In this document: in pieces, positions 45,512 to 63,058 of the stretch
Position numbering within the stretch: position 1 is the first letter of the stretch
Layout: each line of letters opens with the position of its first letter
Assembly (NCBI GenBank): GCA_014730275.1
Contig: WJIL01000006.1
Coordinates: 36,191 to 100,190 of the forward strand
Direction: 5' to 3'
Source: Promethearchaeota archaeon
Lineage (GTDB): Archaea; Asgardarchaeota; Thorarchaeia; Thorarchaeales; Thorarchaeaceae
DNA: 64,000 nucleotides
Made by a program: the position numbers and the translations under genes
Notes under the pieces: model-generated
Told to the model about the DNA's origin: nothing
Seen by the model: only the letters and a program-made list of their open reading frames with translations
Database searches by the model: none

Positions 45512-47077
45512 TCAACTTGTTTTCCATCTGTACACTACAATGACCAATATAATCACTGCGGCAATCCCAATCACACCAACTATGACGAGGGGATCAATAC
45601 CACCATCAGGCGGAAGTGTGGTTGTTCCTGTGTCTATGCCTTGCACAGTTGTGAATTCATAGTACTTGTGAGTCCATTCACCATTCGAACCTTTGGCGTA
45701 GACGTCTAGCGTATGAAGACCATTGGTATCAGGCAACGTTCCTAACGTGGTACTGTTGTCACCTCCGTCCCAAGAGAAGTACTTCTCTTCTGGAACTTCG
45801 CTGAAGTAAAACTCTGGTGCTTCATCTGGTAACGCAGACGAAGTATTGGCAATTTCGCGATAAGCAATCTCAATGGGACCCTCATAAGGAAGAGTATAGG
45901 TTTCAGTTACATCTCCGTCCTTATTGACAGTCTCCATTTCGATTCTTCGGGGAGAAGTATTGAGTCGCACATAGTGGTTATAGTCGCCGCCCCACGGAGT
46001 CCGATACAGCTTTGGTCCGACACCACTTGAGGTGACATGTACAACGCCATTTACTGTTATCCGCTGGAATACGTGGTCATGTCCACTGAGAAACATGGTC
46101 ACATTCTCCTCCTCAAACAGGTTCTGAAGACGGGCTCGCTCGGTCTTATTGGCATCTATCGCACTGTCTATGTGGGCAACAGGATAGAACGGTTGATGAG
46201 CAACAACATATTTGATTTCCTTGTCGGTGCTTTGAAGATCGTTTACCAGCCAGTCATACTGTTCTCCAGTTATTCTACGCGGGGTCTCAGGTACTTCAGT
46301 ATCGAGAAATGTGAAGTGCACACCCGCATAGTCGAACGAAAACCAAGTTGAGTTTCCACCATACTGGTGGAACGAGTCCAAGAACCAATCTGCGTAGGTT
46401 TCTCCTGGTCTTGTATCATGGTTTCCTATGCAACCATAGATTGGTGTATAATGACCCAGCTTATCAGACACATTGAGATAGTTACCCCAAGCAATCTCAT
46501 TGTAGGTTTCATCAGTTGCGGATACTTCATGCACAAAATCACCCGCAATTATTACGAGATGGGGCTCTTCATTGCGTGCCATGTCCACGAAATCCCGGAA
46601 TATCTGAGACTGTCCCGGTGCCATTGATTGTAGGGGCTGTGGATCGCCCATTACGATGAGCTTGAATGGTGTCCCATCCTCAGGTTCCGTTTTGAAGTAA
46701 TAAACCTCGCTACTGGTTCCATCAGAAACAGCTTCATAGTACACCGTTGTTCCAGCTTCTAATCCATCAATCCAGATGCTGTGTTCTTTGCTCGAAGTGG
46801 GATTACTAACACTCGAATCGAGGTTGTCAGAAGCATTTCCATAGTTTACTGTGGCATTCGTTGGAGTTTTTGTTTCCCAGTAAATCATGGCTGAAGTCTT
46901 GTTTACCATGTGAACCGTCGGTCCTCGCGGAAAAATCTCATCATCAGCCCGAACCGCATCAGGCTGGATCTCGCTGTCGAGCGGAGCAATTTCCAATCCT
47001 GCAAGGGGAGCTCCAGCAAAAGATAGAATCAGCAGTGAAAAAATAATTAGGAATGAAGGTTTTCTGGACATCTGCAA
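45512..47077 (-). CDS. Secreted, C-terminally membrane-anchored purple-acid-phosphatase-like metallophosphoesterase (paralog A)
   Basis: Signal peptide; FN3-like PAP N-domain ('VHMVNKTSAMIYWET'); calcineurin-like motifs 'GDPQP', 'IAGDFVHE', 'GNHD', 'GHDHVFQR'; C-terminal TM 'IVGVIGIAAVIILVIVVY'. Confidence 0.75.
   Translation of the reverse strand: MQMSRKPSFLIIFSLLILSFAGAPLAGLEIAPLDSEIQPDAVRADDEIFPRGPTVHMVNKTSAMIYWETKTPTNATVNYGNASDNLDSSVSNPTSSKEHSIWIDGLEAGTTVYYEAVSDGTSSEVYYFKTEPEDGTPFKLIVMGDPQPLQSMAPGQSQIFRDFVDMARNEEPHLVIIAGDFVHEVSATDETYNEIAWGNYLNVSDKLGHYTPIYGCIGNHDTRPGETYADWFLDSFHQYGGNSTWFSFDYAGVHFTFLDTEVPETPRRITGEQYDWLVNDLQSTDKEIKYVVAHQPFYPVAHIDSAIDANKTERARLQNLFEEENVTMFLSGHDHVFQRITVNGVVHVTSSGVGPKLYRTPWGGDYNHYVRLNTSPRRIEMETVNKDGDVTETYTLPYEGPIEIAYREIANTSSALPDEAPEFYFSEVPEEKYFSWDGGDNSTTLGTLPDTNGLHTLDVYAKGSNGEWTHKYYEFTTVQGIDTGTTTLPPDGGIDPLVIVGVIGIAAVIILVIVVYRWKTS
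45741..45803. repeat. 63-nt tract identical to 47446..47508 (inside paralog A)
   Basis: Exact match of 'cctaacgtggtactgttgtcacctccgtcccaagagaagtacttctcttctggaacttcgct' found by direct comparison. Confidence 0.8.
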
Positions 47078-47213: not shown

Positions 47214-48773
47214 TCAAGCGCCCCCCGTTTTCCATTTGTAGACTACAATAACCATTATCACTGCCACAACGCCGAGCACACCAAGAATCACAACAGGATT
47301 CATGCCCGAAGGGGGAGGAGTGGTGGTTGTTTGTGGTTCTTCACCACCAACAGTATCAAACGCATAGTGTTTGTGATTCCATACTCCATCTAATCCTTTG
47401 GCATAGACATCAAGCGTATGAAGCCCGTTGATATCAGGAAATGTCCCTAACGTGGTACTGTTGTCACCTCCGTCCCAAGAGAAGTACTTCTCTTCTGGAA
47501 CTTCGCTAAAGAGAATCAATGGTGCTTGTTCTGGACGTCCAGCTGATGTATTGAAGAATCGTCGTAGAGCAATTTCGATAGAGCCCTCATACGGGAGTGC
47601 ATAGTCTGCTGCAACTTCTCCGTCCGTATTGATGGTTTCCATCTGAATCTCCGCGTCTGAGATATTCCATCTTGTATAGTGATGGAAATCTCCGCCCCAA
47701 GGAGTGGAATAGAGTTTGGGTCCAGCTCCTGCTGTAGTGACATGCAGAACTCCATTGACAGTCAGTCTCTGGAAAACATGGTCGTGCCCTGCAAGATATG
47801 CGGTGACATTGTGCTCTTCAAACAAACTCTGGAGGCGATTCCTTTCTGTCCGGTTTCTATCCAGCGAGCTTCCTATAGCACTAACAGGGTACATTGGTTG
47901 ATGGCCCATCACGAATTTGATTTCTTTGTCTGTGTTTTCTAGATCGTTTACCAACCAATCATATTGCTCTCCACTTATCCTACCTTGATATTCTGGCATT
48001 TCACTATCAAGAAGAGTGAAGTGAACACCTGCGTAATCAAACGAGAAATAGGTGGAATCTCCACCGTATTGCTGGAAGGCTTCAAGAAATCCATCTGCAT
48101 AATGTTCTCCTGAAATGGTATCATGATTTCCAATAACTCCATACATTGGAGCGTAGTGCCCCGCTTTGTCACTTACATTGAGATACTTATTCCAACATAG
48201 GTCGTTATAGCTCTCGTCGGTATCAGAGAGCTGGTCCACATAATCTCCTAGTATCAAAATGAGGTGCGGTTCTTCATTGCGAACCATATCTATAATATCC
48301 TTGAATACTTGCGACTGATCCGGGGCCATTGCTGATGTTGGTTGTGGGTCACTTAGCACAACAAGATTGAATGGTTCACCATCTTCAGGCTCAGTTTTGA
48401 AGTGATAGATATCGCTACTCGTCCCATCAGAAATTGCTTGGTAGTATACCGTCGTTCCAGCATCTAAGCCATCAATCCATACTCTATGCTCTTTTGATAG
48501 CGTCGTGTTTTCCACAGCTGAATCTAAGTTTTCGGAGGTAGATCCGTAGTTCACTGTAGCATTTGTTTGTGTATTCGTTTCCCAGTAAATCATAGCCGCG
48601 GTCTTGTTGACCATATGTACAGTTGGGCCTCTTGGAAAAGCTTCGCTGTCAGCAAAGGCATAAGAGTTCAGTTCTGTATGAGCTACATTGTTATTCCATG
48701 TAGCGAGAGGGATTCCTGCTACTGAGGAGGCAAACAATGAGAGAACAAGTATGAACGATATCTTCTGGGACAT
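47214..48773 (-). CDS. Secreted, C-terminally membrane-anchored purple-acid-phosphatase-like metallophosphoesterase (paralog B)
   Basis: Same motif set ('VHMVNKTAAMIYWET', 'ILGDYVDQ', 'GNHD', 'GHDHVFQR') and C-terminal TM; collinear with paralog A over its whole length. Confidence 0.75.
   Translation of the reverse strand: MSQKISFILVLSLFASSVAGIPLATWNNNVAHTELNSYAFADSEAFPRGPTVHMVNKTAAMIYWETNTQTNATVNYGSTSENLDSAVENTTLSKEHRVWIDGLDAGTTVYYQAISDGTSSDIYHFKTEPEDGEPFNLVVLSDPQPTSAMAPDQSQVFKDIIDMVRNEEPHLILILGDYVDQLSDTDESYNDLCWNKYLNVSDKAGHYAPMYGVIGNHDTISGEHYADGFLEAFQQYGGDSTYFSFDYAGVHFTLLDSEMPEYQGRISGEQYDWLVNDLENTDKEIKFVMGHQPMYPVSAIGSSLDRNRTERNRLQSLFEEHNVTAYLAGHDHVFQRLTVNGVLHVTTAGAGPKLYSTPWGGDFHHYTRWNISDAEIQMETINTDGEVAADYALPYEGSIEIALRRFFNTSAGRPEQAPLILFSEVPEEKYFSWDGGDNSTTLGTFPDINGLHTLDVYAKGLDGVWNHKHYAFDTVGGEEPQTTTTPPPSGMNPVVILGVLGVVAVIMVIVVYKWKTGGA
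47446..47508. repeat. 63-nt tract identical to 45741..45803 (inside paralog B)
   Basis: As above. Confidence 0.8.
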
Positions 48774-48888: not shown

Positions 48889-49797
48889 TTGTACATCAAG
48901 CTGAGGAAGGATGGCGCAGTAGGGCTCGGCAGAGCAACAAAAGGTAAAGCTGAGATAACAATTGGATACGGCGAGGCCCATATGGTTGCAGCGGCTCTCG
49001 AAAAGGTGGCACAGACACCCAAAGAATTCCACCAGACATACAAAAAGACGACGAATGTCGGTGGCGGTAACGAAATCGAATTCGACCGCGAAAAGAATGG
49101 TGCCATATCAATATCAGGAGACGGATACAGATACAGCTGTTCTGAAGAAGAGATTCTCCAGCTTGTTAAATCTCTCAGAGATCTGCCCCCGCTTGATACT
49201 CATGAAGAGTCCAGGTTTGTTAGCAAGAACGCCGATGCGTTGCATTGTGTTACAGTTGAAAACAAGGGCAACTCGGTGAAACTCACCTTACCTGAAGCGG
49301 CCGTCTTGAGAACTTCATTGCTAAGCAGTATGGAGGGGCAATACTACACAGAAGTAATCGAGATAGGAAAACAGAAGGTCAAATTGGAGCGAACCAGTGG
49401 TCTGAAATGGCAACTCATTGGAAAGGACTCGGTGAAATTCACGGCCTATGAAATTGAAGAGCTTGTCGAAGGAATAGAATCAGCGATCATGGATGTGCTT
49501 ATGAAGACAGCTAATTCAATGGGAATCGATGAAGTCAGCGACATCCGAGTTAAGAGTAGAGTGCAGCGTATCGAAGAAGACACCAAGGCAGTAGTTGAGA
49601 ACTACGCACACGGAAGAAGAGTCCGAAAGAGAATCAAAAAGATGGCAGAAAAGGTTCTAGGAGCGGGAGAGGACGCAGCATCTCGTACAAACCACTTCAT
49701 GGAAGTTGCTAACTACATCTATCGTGAGCTAGAACCAGAGTACTTCGAGCCCCTCTTCGGGGTGCTTGCTTCAACATTTCTGCCAACAATCAAGTAG
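48889..49797 (+). CDS. Hypothetical protein
   Basis: 302-aa ORF, charged/helical C-terminus; no motif recognised. Confidence 0.4.
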   Translation: MYIKLRKDGAVGLGRATKGKAEITIGYGEAHMVAAALEKVAQTPKEFHQTYKKTTNVGGGNEIEFDREKNGAISISGDGYRYSCSEEEILQLVKSLRDLPPLDTHEESRFVSKNADALHCVTVENKGNSVKLTLPEAAVLRTSLLSSMEGQYYTEVIEIGKQKVKLERTSGLKWQLIGKDSVKFTAYEIEELVEGIESAIMDVLMKTANSMGIDEVSDIRVKSRVQRIEEDTKAVVENYAHGRRVRKRIKKMAEKVLGAGEDAASRTNHFMEVANYIYRELEPEYFEPLFGVLASTFLPTIK

Positions 49798-49856: not shown

Positions 49857-51275
49857 TCAATCAGACTTGCCACAGCAGGTAGACCACGGATACCTATCAA
49901 GGACTCGGTTGATTAAACCGCGGACTTTCCGTTCCTCGCTAGTGCCTTCATATACGAGTATGAGTACCTTTCCTCCGCGTGTCCGCTTGAATTTCTGATA
50001 CATTGTTTTGCTGGTATTGATTATGTCAGCAACAATCATCACATCGGCTTCGGGTAGGTCCAAGTCACGCTCTCCAACCGGGGACATAACAAGTGCGTCA
50101 ATCGGCTCATCCTTGAATGACTTCAGCACAGACCCTTTATCTCGAGTTTTTCCCGTGATTCTGGTGACTTTCATTCCCGCCTTTGACAGGAGATTTTGGA
50201 CCTGGGAAACCATTCGCAGATAGGAGGATATTATCACAGATTTATCGTATTGCTTCGCAATCTCCACAATCTTTGCTGCTTTTGGAGAGATTGTTGGAAG
50301 GACTTTCCGTAGCTCGCTAACATTGAAGTAATGCTTGAGATACTCATTATGAAACATTCTCATGAACTGTTTGGGCGGCATAGCATAGACATACTTTCGA
50401 AGGAGCAACAGACCTGAGTACCTACCTTTCAAATCATCCGAAACGGGGAGTCGTTCCAGCATGAGATGGATTCTTCGAGAATCGCCTTGAACCAATTCCA
50501 GATTCCCGGATTCTTCCAGCTGGCCAAGTATCTCCCTACGTGTATCTCGAACAAGCTCATCAATAACAATAGAAATCGATCGGATTTTCTTGTTGTGCAC
50601 CGGAACTGTTGAAATCACTGTTTTTTCAATGTATTCGTCAATATCTGTGTCATAGAGGTCTTCCATTGTCACTAGACTTGCGTTGGGTATGTGTTTCAAT
50701 AGTGTCTTTAGCTCTTTTCGAATCTCCAACTGCTCATCTGTAAATACAGCGTGCTCATCTCTCAACGTACCACTCATGCCAATTATCCGCTTTTCCCGTA
50801 GAAGAGTAAGAAGAGTAGGCCACGGAAATACCAGAGCGGTTCTTCCCCTGGTCCTTCGAACTAGTGTGTCAACTTCGTTGATAATAACTACATCAATGCC
50901 TTCTAGAAGAGTGATATCTTTCTTCAAGACGTTGGCGAGTACCTGCGGCGTAGAGATGATGACTCGTTTCTCACGGAGAATGTACTCGCGCATTCCAGAC
51001 CGAACGCGGGAGGAAAGGTCCCCAAGATCCTCTGAAAGCCCTCCATACTCAGATTTCATATAGTCAACAGTCTCGGCCAGTGAAGACGTGGAATGGACCA
51101 CAATAATGAAACGTTTGTCAGGAAAGGATTCGACAACCAGTTGATGCGTCAAGAAACGCTTTCCCAAGCCACAATCCAGCTCCACAAGCACATTATCATC
51201 TTTAAGTTCGTAGATTTGGTCGAGGATGAACTCTTGGTAACCTCGGGGTGTGTACTTGGTCTTCGTTTCTGACAT
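49857..51275 (-). CDS. SF2 helicase-like protein, Hef/FANCM/XPF-helicase-type, with degenerate ATPase motifs
   Basis: 'PRGYQEFI' (Q-motif region as in Hef 'PRIYQE'), motif I 'DCGLGKR' (GKT>GKR), motif II 'IINEVD' (DEAH>NEVD), HelicC-like C-terminus 'ITGKTRDKGSVLKSFKD...DLPEADVMIVAD', motif VI-like 'QKFKRTRGG'. ATG at 51275 sits ~30 nt downstream of a TATAAAA box. The ORF track's 573-aa version has a 101-aa N-terminal extension. Confidence 0.6.
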   Translation of the reverse strand: MSETKTKYTPRGYQEFILDQIYELKDDNVLVELDCGLGKRFLTHQLVVESFPDKRFIIVVHSTSSLAETVDYMKSEYGGLSEDLGDLSSRVRSGMREYILREKRVIISTPQVLANVLKKDITLLEGIDVVIINEVDTLVRRTRGRTALVFPWPTLLTLLREKRIIGMSGTLRDEHAVFTDEQLEIRKELKTLLKHIPNASLVTMEDLYDTDIDEYIEKTVISTVPVHNKKIRSISIVIDELVRDTRREILGQLEESGNLELVQGDSRRIHLMLERLPVSDDLKGRYSGLLLLRKYVYAMPPKQFMRMFHNEYLKHYFNVSELRKVLPTISPKAAKIVEIAKQYDKSVIISSYLRMVSQVQNLLSKAGMKVTRITGKTRDKGSVLKSFKDEPIDALVMSPVGERDLDLPEADVMIVADIINTSKTMYQKFKRTRGGKVLILVYEGTSEERKVRGLINRVLDRYPWSTCCGKSD

Positions 51276-51304
51276 GGTTCTCAATTGTTTTGAGTGGAGT
51301 ATCG

Positions 51305-51311
51305 TATAAAA
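51305..51311 (-). promoter_or_regulatory. TATA-like box (TTTTATA on - strand) ~30 nt upstream of the helicase ATG
   Basis: Reverse complement reads 'gagcTTTTATAcgatac...'; spacing consistent with a leaderless archaeal transcript. Confidence 0.3.
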
Positions 51312-51348
51312 GCTCCCGTAAGCATACTGGGAAAAAACCGGACACTGT

Positions 51349-52188
51349 TTAGATATGTTCTCCCGGTTCCGGTAGCTCCCTCTCATCTCCTTCGGCTCGT
51401 AGCGAAGGAATGCGTTCAACCTCATCTCTCGGGATGGCTTTTCCACGAACCCAGATTGTGTTATCAGGTACCACAGTATCCTTTGGAACAACCGAGGCGG
51501 CACCGATGACCACATTGTCTCCAATCTCTGCCCCCGCCAGAATAACGGCGTTTGCACCGACAGTAACGTTGTCGCCAAGCTTCACCGTTTTCAAATACAA
51601 AGAATTACCCTCGTACACATGTCCGCTTAGTATCGCATCATAGCCGAAAAAGCAATTCTGTCCGATTATCGTTCTTTCAGGATTGAAGAGCCTACCATTT
51701 CCGACAACCGTTCCCTTGCCGATTTCTGCACCGAACCAGACATGGCGGAACCTAGTATCTGTGAATATGCTAAAGAAACCGGCAAAATATGGTAGCAAGA
51801 TATAGTAGACCTCGTAGAATTCGTAAAGCAACCATTTTTCGGTTTCAGCATTGTAATATCCATCTTCTAAGAAAGGAATCCCTCGTCTGGAAAGCAAGAA
51901 TAAGCCCAGCAAGATAGCAAGGAATATACTATAAGATGTAAGGCCAATTGGAACAAAGAGCACAATGAACCAGAAGTGTTCATAGAAAAACGAAGGGAAC
52001 CAGCCAGCGAAGGTTCCAGTAAACCAAGGATGGATACTTGAAATGGGCCAAAACAGATTATTCATGAACCCCTCAATATTGTTGTACGCCCAGGCGAAAA
52101 CCATAATGCCGGGGATAGCAGCCAATGTAAGGCTAATCAGAATGGATAAAGCAAGATATATACCGTAGAGAATGGTCCTTATTTTCAC
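51349..52188 (-). CDS. Membrane-anchored hexapeptide-repeat (LbH) acyl/acetyltransferase
   Basis: N-terminal ~5 TM helices, then hexapeptide repeats 'GKGTVVGNGRLFNPERTIIGQNCFFGYDAILSGHVY...LGDNVTVGANAVILAGAEIGDNVVIGAASVV'. GTG start. Confidence 0.6.
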   Translation of the reverse strand: MKIRTILYGIYLALSILISLTLAAIPGIMVFAWAYNNIEGFMNNLFWPISSIHPWFTGTFAGWFPSFFYEHFWFIVLFVPIGLTSYSIFLAILLGLFLLSRRGIPFLEDGYYNAETEKWLLYEFYEVYYILLPYFAGFFSIFTDTRFRHVWFGAEIGKGTVVGNGRLFNPERTIIGQNCFFGYDAILSGHVYEGNSLYLKTVKLGDNVTVGANAVILAGAEIGDNVVIGAASVVPKDTVVPDNTIWVRGKAIPRDEVERIPSLRAEGDERELPEPGEHI

Positions 52189-52191
52189 TCT

Positions 52192-53559
52192 TTGAGCTCT
52201 CCGAATCTAGGGCTGATACATGAGAAACAGTACCCAGATTTGAAGGTATTCATACTCGAGGGAAACAGATATTATCCATCTGTTCACGTGTCGCTCAAAT
52301 CAGACACGCGATATGCGGAGACATTTGATGTGACATATGATGTGATAATAGCTGGAACTGGTCCCGCGGGATTGATGACTGCCGATAGGCTCTCTGAGAA
52401 AGGCATTGACACACTAGTATTGGAAAAGAGAAAACACGTTACGGATTCTCTCATGGGTGAACTGGTTACGGACAAAGCCCTCCGTCTTCTTAGAGTAAGG
52501 CCAGATTCCGAATATATAGGTAACAAGTATAAGAGAATAATCGGCGAAAGTCTGGATACAGGTTCCAATGTAGTAGTGGGAGAAAATCTCCTAGGTAATT
52601 CATATCTTCTGGACGAAGACAAATGTCAGCAACTCATGAAAGAACGTGCAGAATCAAATGGCGTCGAATTCAGGTTTTCCAGCAGGGTGGATTCGGTCAT
52701 AAAGAACAATGGACAGGTTACAGGCATACGATACAATGACAACAAGAAAGAGCGTGCAAATCTTGTCATCGGAGCAGATGGATCGTTCAGCAAGGTTTCA
52801 CAAACAGCCGGCTTCAAGACAGCACGTTGGCTACTCTCCTATGGCTATCGGTGGAAACTAGAGGATTGCAAAGATATTGATCCAACAACAGCGTACTTCT
52901 ATGTTGGCCGTGATGTAGGTCTGGGCTATATGTGGTTTTATCCACGGAGTGAAACTGAGGTGAATCTCGGAATCGGACGTGTGCCCTCGTCCAAGGAACA
53001 ATGGGAACAACTACCTCCAATGGTCGACGTATTGAAGAAATACAAAAACAAGTTCCCGGAAACCAAGGATTCCAAAATCGCATCTGTGAACGGTGGAGTA
53101 GTGCCCTGTGCAGGCATCATCCCGAAATTCACTGATGCGGGTGTTGCTCTCTGTGGCAATGCTGCGGGTCAAGTGTCCTCAATTGTCGGTGGTGGTGTCA
53201 CAACATGCTTTCATGCAGGAACGTTATTGGCAAGACATGCTGCTAGAGCTGTTTCTGAGGATGACTTCTCAAGGAAAAGCATAGAGAAATATGAGAAGGA
53301 ATACCGCAAGTCAAAGCTTGCGTGGAATATTCAGAATACTGGTGATGGTATGTGGGCTGTATCAAGGTATGCCATGTTGAATGACCCACTGGAGGCGGCT
53401 GAAATAGTCCTCAATTCTCTTGATGCTAGAACCTTGAACTCTATCATCCAAGGTGACATTTCCGTTTCTGAGGTTCTGACACTCCTTACCGAGTTCATGC
53501 CCATGATTCTACGGATTGGCAAAGGCTATCTCAAGAGCGTTGCTCTTGTTGGTCCTTGA
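52192..53559 (+). CDS. Geranylgeranyl-reductase-family FAD-dependent oxidoreductase
   Basis: 'YDVIIAGTGPAGLMTADRLSEKGIDTLVLEKRK' Rossmann FAD motif and 'LVIGADGSFSKV'. Start uncertain (TTG 52192 vs GTG 52330). Confidence 0.7.
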   Translation: MSSPNLGLIHEKQYPDLKVFILEGNRYYPSVHVSLKSDTRYAETFDVTYDVIIAGTGPAGLMTADRLSEKGIDTLVLEKRKHVTDSLMGELVTDKALRLLRVRPDSEYIGNKYKRIIGESLDTGSNVVVGENLLGNSYLLDEDKCQQLMKERAESNGVEFRFSSRVDSVIKNNGQVTGIRYNDNKKERANLVIGADGSFSKVSQTAGFKTARWLLSYGYRWKLEDCKDIDPTTAYFYVGRDVGLGYMWFYPRSETEVNLGIGRVPSSKEQWEQLPPMVDVLKKYKNKFPETKDSKIASVNGGVVPCAGIIPKFTDAGVALCGNAAGQVSSIVGGGVTTCFHAGTLLARHAARAVSEDDFSRKSIEKYEKEYRKSKLAWNIQNTGDGMWAVSRYAMLNDPLEAAEIVLNSLDARTLNSIIQGDISVSEVLTLLTEFMPMILRIGKGYLKSVALVGP

Positions 53560-53816: not shown

Positions 53817-54848
53817 ATGCCGATTAGCGAAGATGCCGCAGAAACGTTGGAGCTGTTAGGATTCAAGACGGGGATAGATCATGATTCACGGGCGCTGAGT
53901 CTTCTGCGAGCCATGCTCAAGAAATGTGATGAGACAGGAAAACCAATATCATTCACCACTGCTTATGAAGCCCTACTAAGAGAAGAACCAAGTGCAAGCC
54001 CCTCAAAAGCATGGATTCACAAGGTGCTCAAATCTCTTGTTGATGATGGCCTCGTAACTATGTTCGGAGAGAGCGCACATCGCAAAAGCTATCTCGCAGA
54101 TGCCAAATCTGTGATGAACGGAATCGAAGTCCTTAGAGAGAAAGCTATTGAAAGAGTCTCAGAGACAATAGATAGAAAAAAGGAAGAGCTAGAAATCATA
54201 AGAAATCTGGATTCTGCAGCCCTTGCACAAGAAATCACAGAATGGATAACTGGAAGAAGACAGGCACTAAAGGCCAGATTCATCAAGGGAATTGACGAAT
54301 TTTACAGAGTCATTGACACAACGCTATACAAGAACCTGAAATCCGGAGACGTTCTAAGAATCTGCATATTGACAATCAATCCATTCATGCATAGATTTGA
54401 GAAAAGAATCAGCAAGATGGTTGATATAGCCAGAAAGGGCGTTGAGATAAAATATGCAGTTCCAGCAGGATTGCTAGAGAGAGAGTCTTTCAAAAACAAT
54501 CAAAACCTGAGAAATCTCATAAGAGAAGGTTTGGAAAATCTGATTACACTACAAGGGCAGGGTCACAAAATAGATGCTCGGTTTTTCAACGTCAGTAAGA
54601 AGCATTATCAATTTGTGGCAGCTAATCACGAAAGCATGGCACTCATCATCACAGAAAAACCAATCACCGGAGCATGGATGAGCCGCCGTTTCAACGCAGA
54701 TCTGGTAGACTCAGCTGTTGAATCCTTTGACAAGATTTGGAACAAGTCCAAGTCTGTACTTGACATCCGGTCTTCTGATATCGAATCTTCTGGAATGGAC
54801 ATAGACTCTGAGGTCGCAATGAGCTTCATAGAGGGAGGAAAGGAATAG
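53817..54848 (+). CDS. TrmB-like protein (N-terminal wHTH, coiled coil, C-terminal domain), paralog 1 of 3
   Basis: wHTH-like 'ALSLLRAMLKKCDETGKPISFTTAYEALLR...KAWIHKVLKSLVDDGLVTM'; coiled-coil 'IEVLREKAIERVSETIDRKKEELEIIRNL'; ~210-aa C-terminal domain. Confidence 0.5.
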   Translation: MPISEDAAETLELLGFKTGIDHDSRALSLLRAMLKKCDETGKPISFTTAYEALLREEPSASPSKAWIHKVLKSLVDDGLVTMFGESAHRKSYLADAKSVMNGIEVLREKAIERVSETIDRKKEELEIIRNLDSAALAQEITEWITGRRQALKARFIKGIDEFYRVIDTTLYKNLKSGDVLRICILTINPFMHRFEKRISKMVDIARKGVEIKYAVPAGLLERESFKNNQNLRNLIREGLENLITLQGQGHKIDARFFNVSKKHYQFVAANHESMALIITEKPITGAWMSRRFNADLVDSAVESFDKIWNKSKSVLDIRSSDIESSGMDIDSEVAMSFIEGGKE

Positions 54849-55762
54849 TGACTGTCTCGGGTACAAATCAGACTTCCCTGCTTCAGCTTTATGATGTGAA
54901 TCCACAGGAGAAGAGGATGCACGTCCTGAGAGCCCTGCTTGAAGCATGTGAAAATGAAATCAGAGTCGGTTTTTCGGACATTCTGAAACACCTCAGCGGC
55001 GAGGATACTGAGAAGCCCAATGAATCATTGATTTATCGTCTGCTAAGCTCCTTGGAAGACGAGGACTTCATTGAGGTTGATAGGAGCGGCTACAGACACA
55101 GATACTATACAGATTTGAATCGAATAGAGACAGCTCTAGAGAAAAAGAAGGGAAGTGCTCTTCAAACACTTTCTGAAGACAGAATTAAACTGAAACGAAA
55201 ACTTGAGCGGCTCAACAATATCAGAATAGGTCTACTGGTCGACAGAGTCATCAAGGTGATGACTGATTCTAAATGGGATGATAGATCGCGTTTTGGCATG
55301 GGTCTCAGAACCCTACAGCTCATGGCTGATCGAGAGGTATACGCACAGGTAACTCGAGGAGATATCGTACGGATTACAGTTGATGACGTGGATCTTCAAT
55401 CTCCACAGTGGAGCGAGCGCGTCGAAGTTTTTGGGAATCTAGCTTCAAGGGGCGTAAAAGTGAGAGTCCTTTTCACTTGGCCATGTAGACAGGTAAAGAA
55501 TGCGTGGAGAAATACGACGGAAGAGTATCTAAATCTCAAAAATCAAGGCCTAGATGTCGATTTTCGTATCCGGAGCGGAGACCTGACCTATCAGATGGTA
55601 ACAAGGAATGCCGAGGTCCTAGTATTGACTGTAGCAGAGGAACCATTGGCTTCCATATGCGTTCCTAGAAACGAGAATCCAACGTTATTAGATGATGTCG
55701 TAGACAGTTTTGATGCAGAATTCACGTCATCTTACAGTTTAGGTGAAGGTGATATCCGATGA
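54848..55762 (+). CDS. TrmB-like protein, paralog 2 of 3
   Basis: GTG start overlapping the upstream stop (taGTGa); 'MHVLRALLEACENEIRVGFSDILKHLSG...SLIYRLLSSLEDEDFIEVD' wHTH-like, coiled coil, C-terminal domain. Confidence 0.5.
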   Translation: MTVSGTNQTSLLQLYDVNPQEKRMHVLRALLEACENEIRVGFSDILKHLSGEDTEKPNESLIYRLLSSLEDEDFIEVDRSGYRHRYYTDLNRIETALEKKKGSALQTLSEDRIKLKRKLERLNNIRIGLLVDRVIKVMTDSKWDDRSRFGMGLRTLQLMADREVYAQVTRGDIVRITVDDVDLQSPQWSERVEVFGNLASRGVKVRVLFTWPCRQVKNAWRNTTEEYLNLKNQGLDVDFRIRSGDLTYQMVTRNAEVLVLTVAEEPLASICVPRNENPTLLDDVVDSFDAEFTSSYSLGEGDIR

Positions 55763-56730
55763 ACAACCGAATTCATGTTTCGGAACTGTCACTTTTTGAA
55801 CTCGATATGGCATCGCGCAAAATGGATGTTCTTGAAGCTGTTCTGAAGTCGGTGGAAGGAGACTCTGCTACAGCTGATTTTGAGGAGATATTCGAAATAG
55901 TAAACGCTGAAAAAAGTAACAACCTCTCCAAGAGTTGGATCTATAAATGCCTCGGGGAACTAGAACAAGAGGGGTTCGTAGTAGTTGATCGAATAAGTAC
56001 GCCGAACAAATACATGGCTACAAAAGAGACCATAGCAAAGGCATTAGAAAGCGCCAAAAAGGAACAAATGGTCAAGCTCCACGAGAAGATAAACCAAAAC
56101 AGGAAAAATGAACAAGTTATTCAGAATACAAGCATACACAAACTTGCAAGAGAACTTGCAGGAAAATCCGACAAAGAATCAAGGGATTACTCACACCTAA
56201 TCGAGGGTAGTGAAAACGTCAGAGGTTCATTGATTTCTGAGATACTGAATGCCGCAAATCAAGGTAGTGTTATTAGAATAGCTAACTCTTCGGTTTCTTT
56301 AACGAGCAATCTCGGTGAACGGGGGCCAGTAGAAGTACGAATGCTTGAACAAGCACTAAATGGAGTTGAAATGAGAGTTCTTTTTTCTAGAGAGAACACA
56401 AGAGCAAATGAACCAAAATCGATTTCCTCGTTCATGAATGATGCACTCCCGCTATTGGGAAAAGCGGTATCCTCAGGTCATTTGAAATTGAGAGCTATTG
56501 AGGAAGAGAGAGGCACATATCGCAGCGTAATCAAAGATGAGGAAAAAATGATTCTGTACTTATCTGATACATACAAAGCAGATGCAGCCTTTTTCATATC
56601 AGATGAAGATAATGAAACACTGATTCAGCATGCCATCAAGATATTCGATGAACGCTGGGGAAACGCCGTGGATATGACAGATATGTTGAGAACAACTCTT
56701 TCAAATATCAATTATGAACCTGCAGGCTAG
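55759..56730 (+). CDS. TrmB-like protein, paralog 3 of 3
   Basis: ATGA overlap with paralog 2; 'MDVLEAVLKSVEGDSATADFEEIFEIVNAEKSNNLSKSWIYKCLGELEQEGFVVVD' wHTH-like, coiled coil, C-terminal domain. Confidence 0.5.
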   Translation: MNNRIHVSELSLFELDMASRKMDVLEAVLKSVEGDSATADFEEIFEIVNAEKSNNLSKSWIYKCLGELEQEGFVVVDRISTPNKYMATKETIAKALESAKKEQMVKLHEKINQNRKNEQVIQNTSIHKLARELAGKSDKESRDYSHLIEGSENVRGSLISEILNAANQGSVIRIANSSVSLTSNLGERGPVEVRMLEQALNGVEMRVLFSRENTRANEPKSISSFMNDALPLLGKAVSSGHLKLRAIEEERGTYRSVIKDEEKMILYLSDTYKADAAFFISDEDNETLIQHAIKIFDERWGNAVDMTDMLRTTLSNINYEPAG

Positions 56731-60760: not shown

Positions 60761-63058
60761 CTAGAATTGATTGTCTTCTTTCTTCTGTTTAGCCATTTCT
60801 TGTGCATCCTCGTACATGAGATTCGCCAGAATGGTAAACATATCTGCGACTCCTTCTCCAGTCTTAGCACTGGTTTCCATGTAGAGGAATCCTTGGTCTT
60901 CAGCCCATTTCTTCGCTTCGTATGGATCGACCGCTCGATCAGGAAGATCTATCTTGTTTCCCACAACAAGAGCTGGGACTTTCCTTCCGATAGACTCGTA
61001 TGCCTCCTCCACCCAGTTTGGAAGCTCTGCGAAGGACCTTCGTCGAGTCACGTCATAAACCAGAATGACACCAGCCGCTCCACTATAGTACATCTTTCGT
61101 ACTGCTTGGAACCGGGCCTGTCCTGCTACATCCCACACTTGTAGTTTGAGACCAACTGCATGATCTTTCTCTTCGGGGTAGATATGGGTGAGTTTGACAG
61201 CGAATTGGCTACCAATCGTGGTCTTGTAATCTTTCTCGAAGCTTCCCGTTGTATACCGATTAACAAGTGCGGTCTTACCAACAGCACCGGGTCCCACAAT
61301 CATGCTCTTCATCAGATACTCATAAGCATCTTCGGATTTGCCAGGTGGAAGAGGTTTGGGTTCCCTATTTCGTATATCTGTTACTAATTCGCTCTCTACT
61401 TGCTCAGGTTCCTCAGGAGCTGGCGGTTCTTCTGGCTCAGTTACTGTCTCCGTCATTGCCTTCAAATCGTCGCCACTGGGTCCTACAGGCTCAGTCTCCC
61501 CGAAAATATCATCCAACATTTTGGAAGCTGCTTCAAGTTGCTGTTTCTCACTTTCAGTATACGCCGATTCTGTTTCAGCTTCAGGCTCCGTTGTCACACT
61601 ACCAAAACCTGTACCCTCCGACCTCACAGAAGAAGACGATTCAACAGGTGCTTCTTGAGGTTGAGAGGGGGTATCAAGGGTCACTTCAGGAGCAGATGCT
61701 GGAGAAGCCTTTGCTTCGCCTTCTTTTACTGAAATAGCTGTCTCAGGGGTCGTGACCTGTTTGACGTTTCCGGATTGATCAGTCCACATCAACACAATTG
61801 GGCGAATAACAACCGTTCCCTCTTCAAGTGGTCTTAAATGAACTTGAATGGATTTACATTCTTGGGAACCAAGATCGAAAGCCAACTCTTTGGGTTCTAC
61901 TTCCATGTTGTCTTTGGGAAACCAATAGATTTTGCCTTTGATTCCCGAGATTGATTTTTCGGTAGCATTGGTGACTGTTACTTCTCCTTTCAGCTCTTCA
62001 CCAGCAGCAGCTTCACGACTAACCTCAAAACGTGGAATTATCTCATAGAGACCTTCGAGGACCTTGAGAGGGCCGTTTGAAACTCCAACTAGGACCTCTT
62101 TGCGTTCATCTCCACCTGCGTCTCCTACACTTATGGAAAGAATCTTTCTTCCAATATCAGTCACAGCTAGCTGCTTCAATTCAGCCATGTACAGGCTATA
62201 GAAAACAATCTCTTGTGTGGCGTTGGCTACAATTATCTCGTCCATATGATCAGCATTTATCTCAGCCATCCGAATCGACAATGCGTCGACATGCTCGAGT
62301 TTGGAGAACATATCAAGCTGACTTTCTTCATTGCGATATATCCTGATAGAGCCATCATGAGTCACAACTCCGAGCTCCATCTTTCGGTCTCCAAGAATAT
62401 CACCTGCTGCTAATGAGATAACAGGGCTTGGGAGATCAAGCACCGCAATTTCATCGGCTGAATTTCCTCTAATCTTGAAAACACGCAATGTTTTGTCACG
62501 ATTACCAATGACTATCTCATCTATCTCATCGCCAATTACATCGCAGGTACCAATACAGAGAGGCATATCTTCGAGGGTGTAGCAAACGAGTTCTTCCAGG
62601 TGATTATCAGCACCCATCTTGAAAACTCTAAGAGTGGAATCACTTCCACCTGCTATGATTTCGTTCTTATCATCACCAGTAACATCAGTGACTTCCACAG
62701 TAGTTACGAAACGGCCAATAGGCTGTTCCGCGATAAGCTCAATTTGACCACTAGGAGCGTATCGATAAACTTGGAGTGTACCCGTTTCTCCGCCTGCACC
62801 ACTTACACTTCGACCAACAACGATTTCCATTTGTCCGTCATTGTTCGCATCTTCAACGCTTATTGAGAGGATGCTCCCTTGAACAGATACCTGAGCAAGG
62901 AAGTCTAGGTGATCTGTATCGGCTTTGTATAACCGGAGAATCCCGTCTCGTCCACCAGTGCAAATCTCCGGCCTCGTTGAGCCTGTCAGATCACCTGTAG
63001 CCGAGGCACTAGTGCTAGTATCGTCTTCCACTTCAAAGAGTATCTTAGGCGAATCCAA
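60761..63058 (-). CDS. Multidomain small GTPase: N-terminal FG-GAP-type beta-propeller + Ig-like domain + acidic S/T/P/E-rich linker + C-terminal Rab/Ras-like GTPase
   Basis: Six or more blades with 'D-x-(N/T/G)-G-D-x-x-x-E-(I/L)-(V/I)-x-G' FG-GAP-like motifs ('DANNDGQMEIVVG','DVTGDDKNEIIAG','DVIGDEIDEIVIG','DAGGDERKEVLVG'). GTPase G1 'GPGAVGKTALV', G2 'YKTTIG', G3 'WDVAGQARF', G4 'GNKIDL', G5 'ETSAKTG'. No C-terminal Cys for prenylation. TTG start. Confidence 0.8.
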   Translation of the reverse strand: MDSPKILFEVEDDTSTSASATGDLTGSTRPEICTGGRDGILRLYKADTDHLDFLAQVSVQGSILSISVEDANNDGQMEIVVGRSVSGAGGETGTLQVYRYAPSGQIELIAEQPIGRFVTTVEVTDVTGDDKNEIIAGGSDSTLRVFKMGADNHLEELVCYTLEDMPLCIGTCDVIGDEIDEIVIGNRDKTLRVFKIRGNSADEIAVLDLPSPVISLAAGDILGDRKMELGVVTHDGSIRIYRNEESQLDMFSKLEHVDALSIRMAEINADHMDEIIVANATQEIVFYSLYMAELKQLAVTDIGRKILSISVGDAGGDERKEVLVGVSNGPLKVLEGLYEIIPRFEVSREAAAGEELKGEVTVTNATEKSISGIKGKIYWFPKDNMEVEPKELAFDLGSQECKSIQVHLRPLEEGTVVIRPIVLMWTDQSGNVKQVTTPETAISVKEGEAKASPASAPEVTLDTPSQPQEAPVESSSSVRSEGTGFGSVTTEPEAETESAYTESEKQQLEAASKMLDDIFGETEPVGPSGDDLKAMTETVTEPEEPPAPEEPEQVESELVTDIRNREPKPLPPGKSEDAYEYLMKSMIVGPGAVGKTALVNRYTTGSFEKDYKTTIGSQFAVKLTHIYPEEKDHAVGLKLQVWDVAGQARFQAVRKMYYSGAAGVILVYDVTRRRSFAELPNWVEEAYESIGRKVPALVVGNKIDLPDRAVDPYEAKKWAEDQGFLYMETSAKTGEGVADMFTILANLMYEDAQEMAKQKKEDNQF

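Follow-up and report, generated by a model that had tools for sequence, protein, structure and literature searches.

Hef is found mainly in Euryarchaeota and DPANN archaea (the latter judged partly from protein names in our searches) and shares with the eukaryotic FANCM a superfamily 2 (SF2) core in which a helical insertion separates two RecA-like domains, an architecture that recurs as Hel1-Hel2i-Hel2 in the RIG-I-like receptors and the Dicer helicase. FANCM (Mph1, Fml1) is a canonical Mg-ATP motor with the motifs GLGKTF, DEAH and QRMGRTGRK, long C-terminal extensions and a degenerate ERCC4 domain; the RIG-I-like receptors and Dicer, also with canonical Walker motifs, are specific for double-stranded RNA, carry pincer, C-terminal or CARD domains, and offer precedents for duplex-binding sensors with little or no unwinding. 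In the helicase-like domain of XPF/Rad1, the SF2 core is without canonical ATPase chemistry, has lost the Walker A lysine and is fused to an active ERCC4 nuclease. Here we describe a Hef/FANCM-type protein from Thorarchaeota, encoded on the minus strand at 49857..51275 of a stretch of 64,000 nucleotides from contig WJIL01000006.1 (the window), together with the family to which it belongs, which, in contrast to Hef, occurs in Asgard and TACK archaea. Every sampled member of this family replaces both of the residues whose conservation is considered strict among P-loop NTPases (Kozlova et al., PMC9599734).

According to that survey of more than 3000 Mg-NTP sites, the two residues are [Ser/Thr]K+1, which follows the Walker A lysine and ligates Mg2+, and the Walker B Asp, to which it is hydrogen-bonded (PMC9599734). 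Substitution of either abolishes activity, the known natural exceptions being the nucleoside monophosphate (NMP) kinases, where loss of [S/T]K+1 keeps ATP binding and suppresses attack by water.

A stand-alone Hef/FANCM-type family in Asgard archaea

The mechanically called open reading frame (ORF) spans 49857..51578 (minus strand) and starts at a TTG, its first ~100 codons overlapping the 3' end of the gene at 51349..52188. Because the N-termini of all orthologues begin at the Met encoded at 51275 (MSxxKPKYTPRGYQ), we set the coding sequence to 49857..51275, with the following features.

49857..51275, minus strand: coding sequence of the 472-residue Hef/FANCM-like SF2 protein, with ATG at 51275 and stop TGA at 49857..49859 (ORF list, sequence and Pfam)
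50598..51275, minus strand: RecA-like domain 1 (RecA1), ~residues 1-226, with motifs Q, I, Ia, Ic, II and III (AlphaFold2 models, Pfam DEAD, hhalign)
51228..51251, minus strand: Q motif TPRGYQEF, residues 9-16 (PRGYQEF being residues 10-16), aligning to Hef PRxYQ
51153..51182, minus strand: motif I or P-loop, ELDCGLGKRF, residues 32-41, read from the sequence in register with GLGKT
50865..50885, minus strand: motif II or Walker B, IINEVDT, residues 131-137, in register with DEAH
50766..50780, minus strand: motif III, GMSGT, residues 166-170, aligning to Hef LTASP, with T170 invariant
50256..50591, minus strand: all-helical insertion domain, ~residues 229-340, between the RecA domains (AlphaFold2 secondary structure, Foldseek, hhalign)
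49941..50255, minus strand: RecA-like domain 2 (RecA2), ~residues 341-445, with motifs IV, V and VI (Pfam Helicase_C, AlphaFold2)
50058..50084, minus strand: motif V, SPVGERDLD, residues 398-406, where Hef has TSVGEEGLD; R403, D404 and D406 invariant
49971..50000, minus strand: motif VI, YQKFKRTRGG, residues 426-435; Y426, Q427, R431 and R433 invariant
49878..49895, minus strand: family-specific C-terminal motif RYPWST, residues 461-466, absent from the outgroups; Y462 and W464 invariant

Pfam recognises in this protein DEAD (PF00270; 34.3 bits against a cut-off of 26, E 2.5e-8, residues 13-172) and Helicase_C (PF00271; 42.3 bits against a cut-off of 23.5, E 1e-10, residues 335-432) and nothing else of substance; in the same search neither ERCC4 nor HhH found a match in the 472 residues. 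The protein ends 27 residues past RecA2, and 59 nucleotides separate its stop codon (49857) from a convergent gene at 48889..49797 (plus strand), which excludes a nuclease domain lost to a frameshift. Two AlphaFold models, one built on 16 close homologues (predicted local distance difference test, pLDDT, 81; predicted template modelling score, pTM, 0.63) and one on 42 diverse family members (pLDDT 88.5, pTM 0.83), agree on RecA1 at ~1-226, an all-helical insertion at ~229-340 and RecA2 at ~341-445. When these were compared with the PDB by Foldseek, the DNA-bound FANCM translocase came first (E 2.9e-21, template modelling (TM) score 0.71), ahead of four Pyrococcus furiosus Hef chains (TM 0.63-0.66) and then the ancestral Dicer helicase, DCL4, RIG-I, LGP2 and MDA5, an order that is unchanged with the first model. 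The description of the protein as a stand-alone Hef/FANCM-type SF2 core without a nuclease, which had been made in a preliminary description from the sequence alone, is borne out.

Sequence profiles point in the same direction. A family profile run against the PDB matched FANCM best (9el5, E 5.8e-13), followed by Hef (1wp9, 5.6e-11), XPB (4e-5) and RIG-I (8e-5), while hhalign aligned 42 family sequences to 17 canonical Hef-like helicases with a probability of 99.9% (E 3.5e-36) over 428 columns, which take in the inter-domain helical region. This region, which holds the invariant R293 (in LLRKY), corresponds to the helical domain of Hef, the insertion of FANCM and Hel2i of RIG-I. The window protein is a member of the Hef/FANCM/RIG-I-like clade of SF2, its closest full-length relatives being Hef, FANCM, the RIG-I-like receptors and Dicer. 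With Hef (P. furiosus 1wp9; PRK13766) it shares homology over RecA1, helical insertion and RecA2, the motifs PRxYQ, TPQ and VGExxLD, and a similar core length, but it lacks the ERCC4 nuclease and HhH2 domains, leaves the Pfam model of the Hef helical domain (PF21210) unmatched across its insertion, ends in an RYPWS tail of its own, and scores only 58.1 bits against the cut-off of 610 of the Hef nuclease model PRK13766, its best match in NCBIfam. With FANCM it shares the three-domain core, without the motor motifs and C-terminal additions named above, and with the RIG-I-like receptors and Dicer the Hel1-Hel2i-Hel2 architecture, at a sequence similarity of E ~1e-4 and without the pincer, C-terminal or CARD domains.

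The closest proteins are 95% and 86% identical to the window protein and are followed by more than 100 others at 62-68%, all of them 472-485 residues long and from Thorarchaeota metagenome-assembled genomes; their annotation never goes beyond 'helicase-related protein' or 'ERCC4-related helicase'. When each GTDB species was represented by one genome, a scan collected 118 relatives, from Thorarchaeota at 55-86% identity and from Hermodarchaeota and Sifarchaeum at 46-49%; it was seeded on ELDCGLGK and alone cannot show that motif I is conserved. An unbiased HMMER search of 1.84 billion cluster representatives at 50% identity returned ~30 full-length clusters at 247-738 bits, with the next proteins at 91 bits or less. 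Below this gap, all proteins with a recognisable P-loop have GK[T], and no eukaryotic protein among these cluster representatives fell inside the family. The source names of the cluster members add Heimdallarchaeota, Kariarchaeaceae, Hodarchaeota, Odinarchaeota, Asgardarchaeia, Korarchaeota and Thermoproteota.

We define the GKR/NExD family by five motifs, i.e., D[CAT]G[LM]GKR, NE[VIA]D, a GERDxD motif V, a Q[KR]xKRxRGG motif VI and an RYPW tail, together with a profile score that clearly exceeds the 91 bits reached at most by the outgroup. The window protein has all five and is 31-95% identical to the other members, and more than 150 full-length orthologues of 450-510 residues share a common architecture. 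In a neighbour-joining tree over 439 columns all 60 bootstraps recover the family as monophyletic, and all 60 group it with the RxRGG proteins, named after their form of motif VI, against canonical Hef and eukaryotic FANCM. The underlying distances are saturated, and long-branch attraction is possible, but the common form of motif VI independently backs the grouping with the RxRGG proteins. Canonical Hef controls (P0184, P0195) show the ERCC4, HhH and Hef helical-bundle domains in Pfam, but canonical helicase-only forms exist too (e.g., in DPANN archaea), and the missing nuclease is therefore not the unusual trait of the family.

The RxRGG group (P0176 from Heimdallarchaeota, P0186-P0189, P0194, P0200 and P0217) is made up of short, helicase-only archaeal Hef-like proteins and appears to be the sister group of the GKR/NExD family. 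It is the nearest outgroup by score (66-91 bits) and in the tree, shares the helicase-only architecture, and is the only place outside the family where the RxRGG form of motif VI is found; P0186 also has the same type of P-loop context (DTGMGK). Unlike the family, these proteins keep GKT and the Walker B Asp, P0186 with its DTGMGKT being intermediate in the P-loop, and they have neither the GERD motif V nor the RYPWS tail. Two further proteins, P0158 and P0159, were considered as Rosetta-stone fusions and set aside, as they look like chimeric gene calls (with fn3, Fer4 and TSP3 domains).

The family is thus a conserved, monophyletic group, ancient and with sharp bounds, of stand-alone Hef/FANCM-type SF2 proteins that consist of RecA1, a helical insertion, RecA2 and a short RYPWS tail. 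Most classes of Asgard archaea have it (namely Thor-, Hermod-, Sif-, Heimdall-, Hod-, Odin- and Asgardarchaeia), and so do some Korarchaeota and Thermoproteota. A full-text literature search found no paper on it, nor on a GKR/NExD site in SF2.

A remodelled ATP site

Within the ATP site of the family the replacements are limited to two residues, the Walker A Thr/Ser (K+1) and the Walker B Asp. In the window protein, Arg40 (codon 51156..51158) stands in place of the Mg2+-ligating Thr/Ser, and Asn133 in place of the Walker B Asp. The register of these assignments was obtained three times, by phmmer against the PDB, by the family profile against the PDB and by hhalign, which all set GLGKR on GLGKT and NEVD on DEAH, and which likewise pair GMSGT with LTASP, SPVGERDLD with TSVGEEGLD and YQKFKRT--RGG with IQRRGRTGR; the motif assignments of the preliminary description hold, and a misregistered motif call is ruled out. 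Where Hef has GKT, DEAH, TAS, GEEG and GRTGR, the family has GKR, NEVD, SGT, GERD and RxRGG.

Both replacements are fixed. D[CAT]G[LM]GKR and NE[VIA]D are present in every full-length member inspected across the ~30 clusters at 50% identity, down to ~31% identity; GKR and NExD are invariant in the alignment of 42 members, which reaches down to ~33% identity to the window protein, and the motifs are carried by 117-120 of 120 close homologues and by all 76 proteins from the genome loci. In the same 42 sequences the invariant columns are 1) in RecA1, E32, D34, G36, G38, K39, R40, S65, N133, E134, D136, R141, T170 and D173, 2) in the helical insertion, R293 and K332, 3) in RecA2, S351, R403, D404, D406, D417, K423, Y426, Q427, R431 and R433, and 4) in the C-terminal region, E447, K450, Y462 and W464, while conservation is at least 90% for R11, Y13 and Q14 in the Q motif and for P110 in TPQ.

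The rest of the site is retained, including the residues for adenine (Q motif), for the beta and gamma phosphates (K39, R431/R433) and for the attacking water (E134), as are the arginine fingers and, among the motifs that contact the backbone, Ia (S/T-S-S-L), Ic (TPQ) and V. Alongside the replacements stand new invariant charged residues on both sides of the cleft (D34, D136, R141, R403 and D404). The ratio of nonsynonymous to synonymous substitutions (dN/dS) against the nearest orthologue used, at 86% identity, is ~0.03, with dS saturated. As fixed replacements accompany retained ATP-site residues and a low dN/dS, the site is remodelled and under strong purifying selection, not decaying. Walker A and B had been called degenerate in the preliminary description, a term that does not survive the comparison, given that GKR and NExD are fixed family-wide beside invariant K39, E134 and R431/R433. 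It is in the eukaryotic XPF helicase-like domain that the site has, in contrast, decayed; the window protein has neither an ERCC4 fusion nor lost the Walker A Lys, and a relation to that domain is not supported. Like that domain, Utp25 (PMC9539457) is a precedent for an SF2 core that persists while lacking canonical ATPase chemistry.

Upstream region and gene neighbourhoods

The intergenic regions on both sides of the gene, and the genes beyond them, contain the following features.

51304..51311, minus strand: TATA-like box TTTTATAC, a candidate promoter at -36..-29 from the ATG (sequence and upstream comparison)
51332..51337, minus strand: run of six T, a candidate archaeal terminator between two transcription units, 12 nucleotides past the stop of the upstream gene
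51349..52188, minus strand: hexapeptide-repeat (LbH) transferase, the upstream same-strand neighbour (Pfam), syntenic in Thorarchaeota only
48889..49797, plus strand: convergent 302-residue orphan gene, which bounds the 3' end of the helicase gene, syntenic in Thorarchaeota only

The ATG at 51275, the TATA-like box upstream of it and the lack of a Shine-Dalgarno sequence had already been noted in the preliminary description and are as stated there, its 'TATAAAA' being the plus-strand reading of TTTTATAC on the coding strand; no GGAGG-like sequence occurs between TTTTATAC and the ATG. Among 97 Thorarchaeota orthologues, 43 have the element GTTC[AT]TA[AT]C exactly at -33 from the ATG, and 48 have it at -34 to -31. 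The element occurs 89 times on both strands of 2.2 Mb of Thorarchaeota loci, about the level of chance apart from the -33 site. The window gene is without it and has TTTTATAC at -36..-29 instead. A promoter-like element at so fixed a distance would leave room for a leader of at most a few nucleotides, and a leaderless or very short-leader mRNA is therefore plausible. In loci L001-L071 the region ~-38..-24 from the helicase ATG has the longer, gene-specific form AGATG[AG]GTTC[AT]TAAC, often trailed by a short inverted repeat whose sequence differs between species.

In Thorarchaeota the neighbourhood is stable, with the membrane hexapeptide transferase upstream, followed by a geranylgeranyl-reductase-like gene and three orphan paralogues, and with the 302-residue orphan downstream; the LbH transferase gene is present at 62 of 82 helicase loci. 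None of these neighbours is shared with the loci of Hermod-, Heimdall-, Hod- or Odinarchaeota or of TACK archaea, and across these loci there is no universal neighbour. The arrangements seen elsewhere are listed here by lineage.

Hermodarchaeota: two tandem HAD hydrolases, the helicase, then JAB and ThiF-like genes
Heimdallarchaeota: RpoB-RpoA'-RpoA''-L30e-NusA, then the helicase
A Heimdall-related lineage: SurE, the helicase and RpoB, with NusA and L30e nearby
A lineage of a TACK-like subgroup: the helicase, then L30e, then NusA
Thermoproteota/Korarchaeota: the helicase, Kae1, then L38e, L7Ae, S28e and L24e
Another lineage: aIF5B, then the helicase with zero gap
Three lineages: convergent neighbouring genes for GTPases of the HflX or YlqF/RsgA type
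Hodarchaeota: genes of metabolism and one that is HerA-like

Adjacency to genes of RNA polymerase, L30e and NusA is thus found in three lineages, in three different arrangements and next to helicases that are in part only ~33% identical to each other, and such a threefold adjacency is unlikely to have arisen by chance. No conserved linkage was seen across the loci to XPF, PCNA, HerA/NurA or other repair genes, HerA/NurA turning up once or twice only. The family was also considered as a defence-island helicase and this was rejected, as PADLOC gave only partial matches at the level of Helicase_C (the best, DpdE, at 26 bits over ~100 residues) and none at all for the neighbours.

Several of the neighbours deserve a description of their own. 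The N-terminal half of the LbH acyltransferase (51349..52188, minus strand) is strongly hydrophobic and the protein is probably membrane-embedded; its pairing with the geranylgeranyl-reductase-like gene (52192..53559, plus strand) is conserved throughout Thorarchaeota and recurs in one further lineage of Asgard archaea (L089). The 302-residue orphan (48889..49797, plus strand) lies at the same position or ~4 kb further off in 55 of ~71 Thorarchaeota loci and found no match in Pfam, PDB-sequence or PADLOC searches. The three consecutive orphan genes at 53817..56730 (plus strand; 343, 304 and 323 residues) show phylum-wide synteny in Thorarchaeota, cross-match the same regions in other Thorarchaeota loci and appear to be tandem paralogues, with a weak DUF724 as their only trace in Pfam. 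Two genes on the minus strand (45512..47077 and 47214..48773) encode tandem paralogous purple-acid-phosphatase-like metallophosphoesterases of ~520 residues, both with a signal-like N-terminus and a C-terminal hydrophobic anchor, and a single copy is again present near the helicase in further loci of Thorarchaeota. Further off, at 60761..63058 (minus strand), a protein of 765 residues combines an FG-GAP/BBSome-like beta-propeller at its N-terminus with a small GTPase of the Ras/Roc type at its C-terminus (Pfam: Ras 2.8e-46, BBS7 propeller 3e-14, BBS2_Mid 9e-12), an Asgard-type 'eukaryotic signature' architecture. In Hermodarchaeota, the JAB-domain and ThiF/E1-like genes 3' of the helicase (L074, 8059..9529, plus strand, and equivalents in L072-L082) form a ubiquitin-like modifier cassette.

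Possible mechanism and role

Our reading of the protein, which we put forward tentatively, is that of a nucleotide-binding but hydrolysis-impaired clamp, sensor or scaffold on duplex or branched nucleic acid that serves a housekeeping pathway. The protein would still bind ATP and, as FANCM and Hef do, nucleic acid that is duplex or branched. The changes from Thr to Arg and from Asp to Asn amount to a net charge of +2, which would match that of the missing Mg2+, and Arg40, placed by homology, may sit where the metal would be, or at the least do away with the canonical ligation of Mg2+. ATP would then be hydrolysed slowly or not at all, and the protein would act as a nucleotide-gated clamp, sensor or scaffold and not as a processive motor. 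As to its role, which is the weakest step, the recurrent adjacency to RNA polymerase, L30e and NusA genes and to translation-factor or ribosomal genes leads us to favour a housekeeping gene that may be tied to transcription or the RNA-protein machinery, or to conflicts there, over one for XPF-type excision repair; we regard this link as a lead, not a finding.

Several observations weigh against this reading. The invariant Glu134, Asp136 and motif VI arginines suit retained catalysis at least as well, and the characterised proteins most closely related to it, Hef and FANCM, work at DNA forks, which favours a role in DNA repair. Shared ancestry could account for part of the adjacency to RNA polymerase, L30e and NusA genes, and about one third of random genes would have an 'information-processing' neighbour within three genes on either side, so that the broader enrichment of such neighbours is weak. 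The neighbourhoods are moreover inconsistent, those in Thor-, Hermod- and Hodarchaeota being metabolic.

Were catalysis fully retained, the protein could be an active, ATP-driven translocase on forks or branch points whose motifs are atypical, a functional equivalent of the Hef helicase where XPF comes without one, which we consider doubtful. In this case water or one of Asn133, Asp136 and Asp34 would coordinate Mg2+, Glu134 would serve as the base, and the protein would remodel stalled forks or R-loops, which is also what Hef and FANCM do. Crenarchaeal XPF is a short form without a helicase domain, which counts for such a function. So does the occurrence of the family in TACK and Asgard archaea, where XPF is said to be present (according to a review, Asgards carry it), together with the closeness of FANCM and Hef in sequence and fold and the invariance or near-invariance of Glu134, Asp136, Lys39, Gln14 and the motif VI arginines; NMP kinases, too, show that water is able to replace [S/T]K+1 as a Mg2+ ligand (PMC9599734). 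Nevertheless, both [S/T]K+1 and the Walker B Asp are replaced here, where single replacements already abolish activity in the NTPases studied, an Arg at K+1 would be expected to clash sterically and electrostatically with bound Mg2+, and no repair gene is linked to the family in a conserved manner. That it is, at the other extreme, a true pseudohelicase, i.e., a scaffold for nucleic acid or protein that binds no nucleotide, is unlikely in our view. R40, D34, N133, D136, R403 and D404 would then form a network of salt bridges that plugs the cleft and locks both RecA domains into a single conformation, which agrees with the new invariant residues of opposite charge across it (D34, R40 and D136 in RecA1, R403 and D404 in RecA2) and with the confident single arrangement of the domains in the ligand-free AlphaFold2 model (pTM 0.83). 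The XPF helicase-like domain provides a precedent for an essential pseudohelicase. Utp25 provides another (PMC9539457), yet both have lost most of the ATP-site residues in question, whereas across the family, at ~31-95% identity, the Q-motif Gln, the P-loop Gly-x-Gly-Lys, Glu134 and the motif VI arginines show little or no variation, which is hard to account for without a bound nucleotide.

By analogy with the NMP kinases, which lost the K+1 Ser/Thr, kept the use of ATP and so avoid futile hydrolysis, the site might also serve a different chemistry or ligand, such as phosphoryl transfer to an acceptor other than water or the recognition of 5'-phosphorylated nucleic-acid ends. The RIG-I-like relatives recognise 5' ends, and the site is remodelled in a fixed way and not lost; there is, however, no acceptor-binding domain, kinase-like lid or supporting gene context, the argument is purely analogical, and we hold such a function to be highly improbable. 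A truncated or frameshifted Hef pseudogene, or a misreading of its motifs, is refuted, as nothing but the missing nuclease domain speaks for it and more than 150 full-length orthologues of the same architecture, the dN/dS of ~0.03, the convergent gene 59 nucleotides past the stop and the thrice-confirmed register speak against it; that the protein is no truncated Hef had also been the view of the preliminary description.

The hydrolysis-impaired clamp, sensor or scaffold that we tentatively favour has a more specific form, which we regard as quite unlikely, in which the Arg at K+1 and the Walker B Asn would take over the role of Mg2+ and the protein would be a metal-independent ATP-binding or slowly hydrolysing switch, older than the split of Asgard and TACK archaea and working with the archaeal core of transcription or translation. 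If this were true, the Arg/Asn-for-Mg2+ site would be a new mechanistic class of P-loop site, and the family would be a housekeeping factor that has gone unnoticed in the archaea most closely related to eukaryotes.

Annotation of these proteins as Hef, ERCC4-related repair helicase or FANCM is inappropriate. With both residues exchanged, the family is a clean natural experiment on what [S/T]K+1 and the Walker B Asp are for, which could turn out as nucleotide binding without metal, as a clamp that is always 'on' or as another way of catalysis. The family represents an unstudied, widely conserved factor, predicted to bind nucleic acid, in the archaeal lineage closest to eukaryotes, one that is related to the ancestors of the FANCM, RIG-I and Dicer helicases and that may be linked to the RNA polymerase operon.

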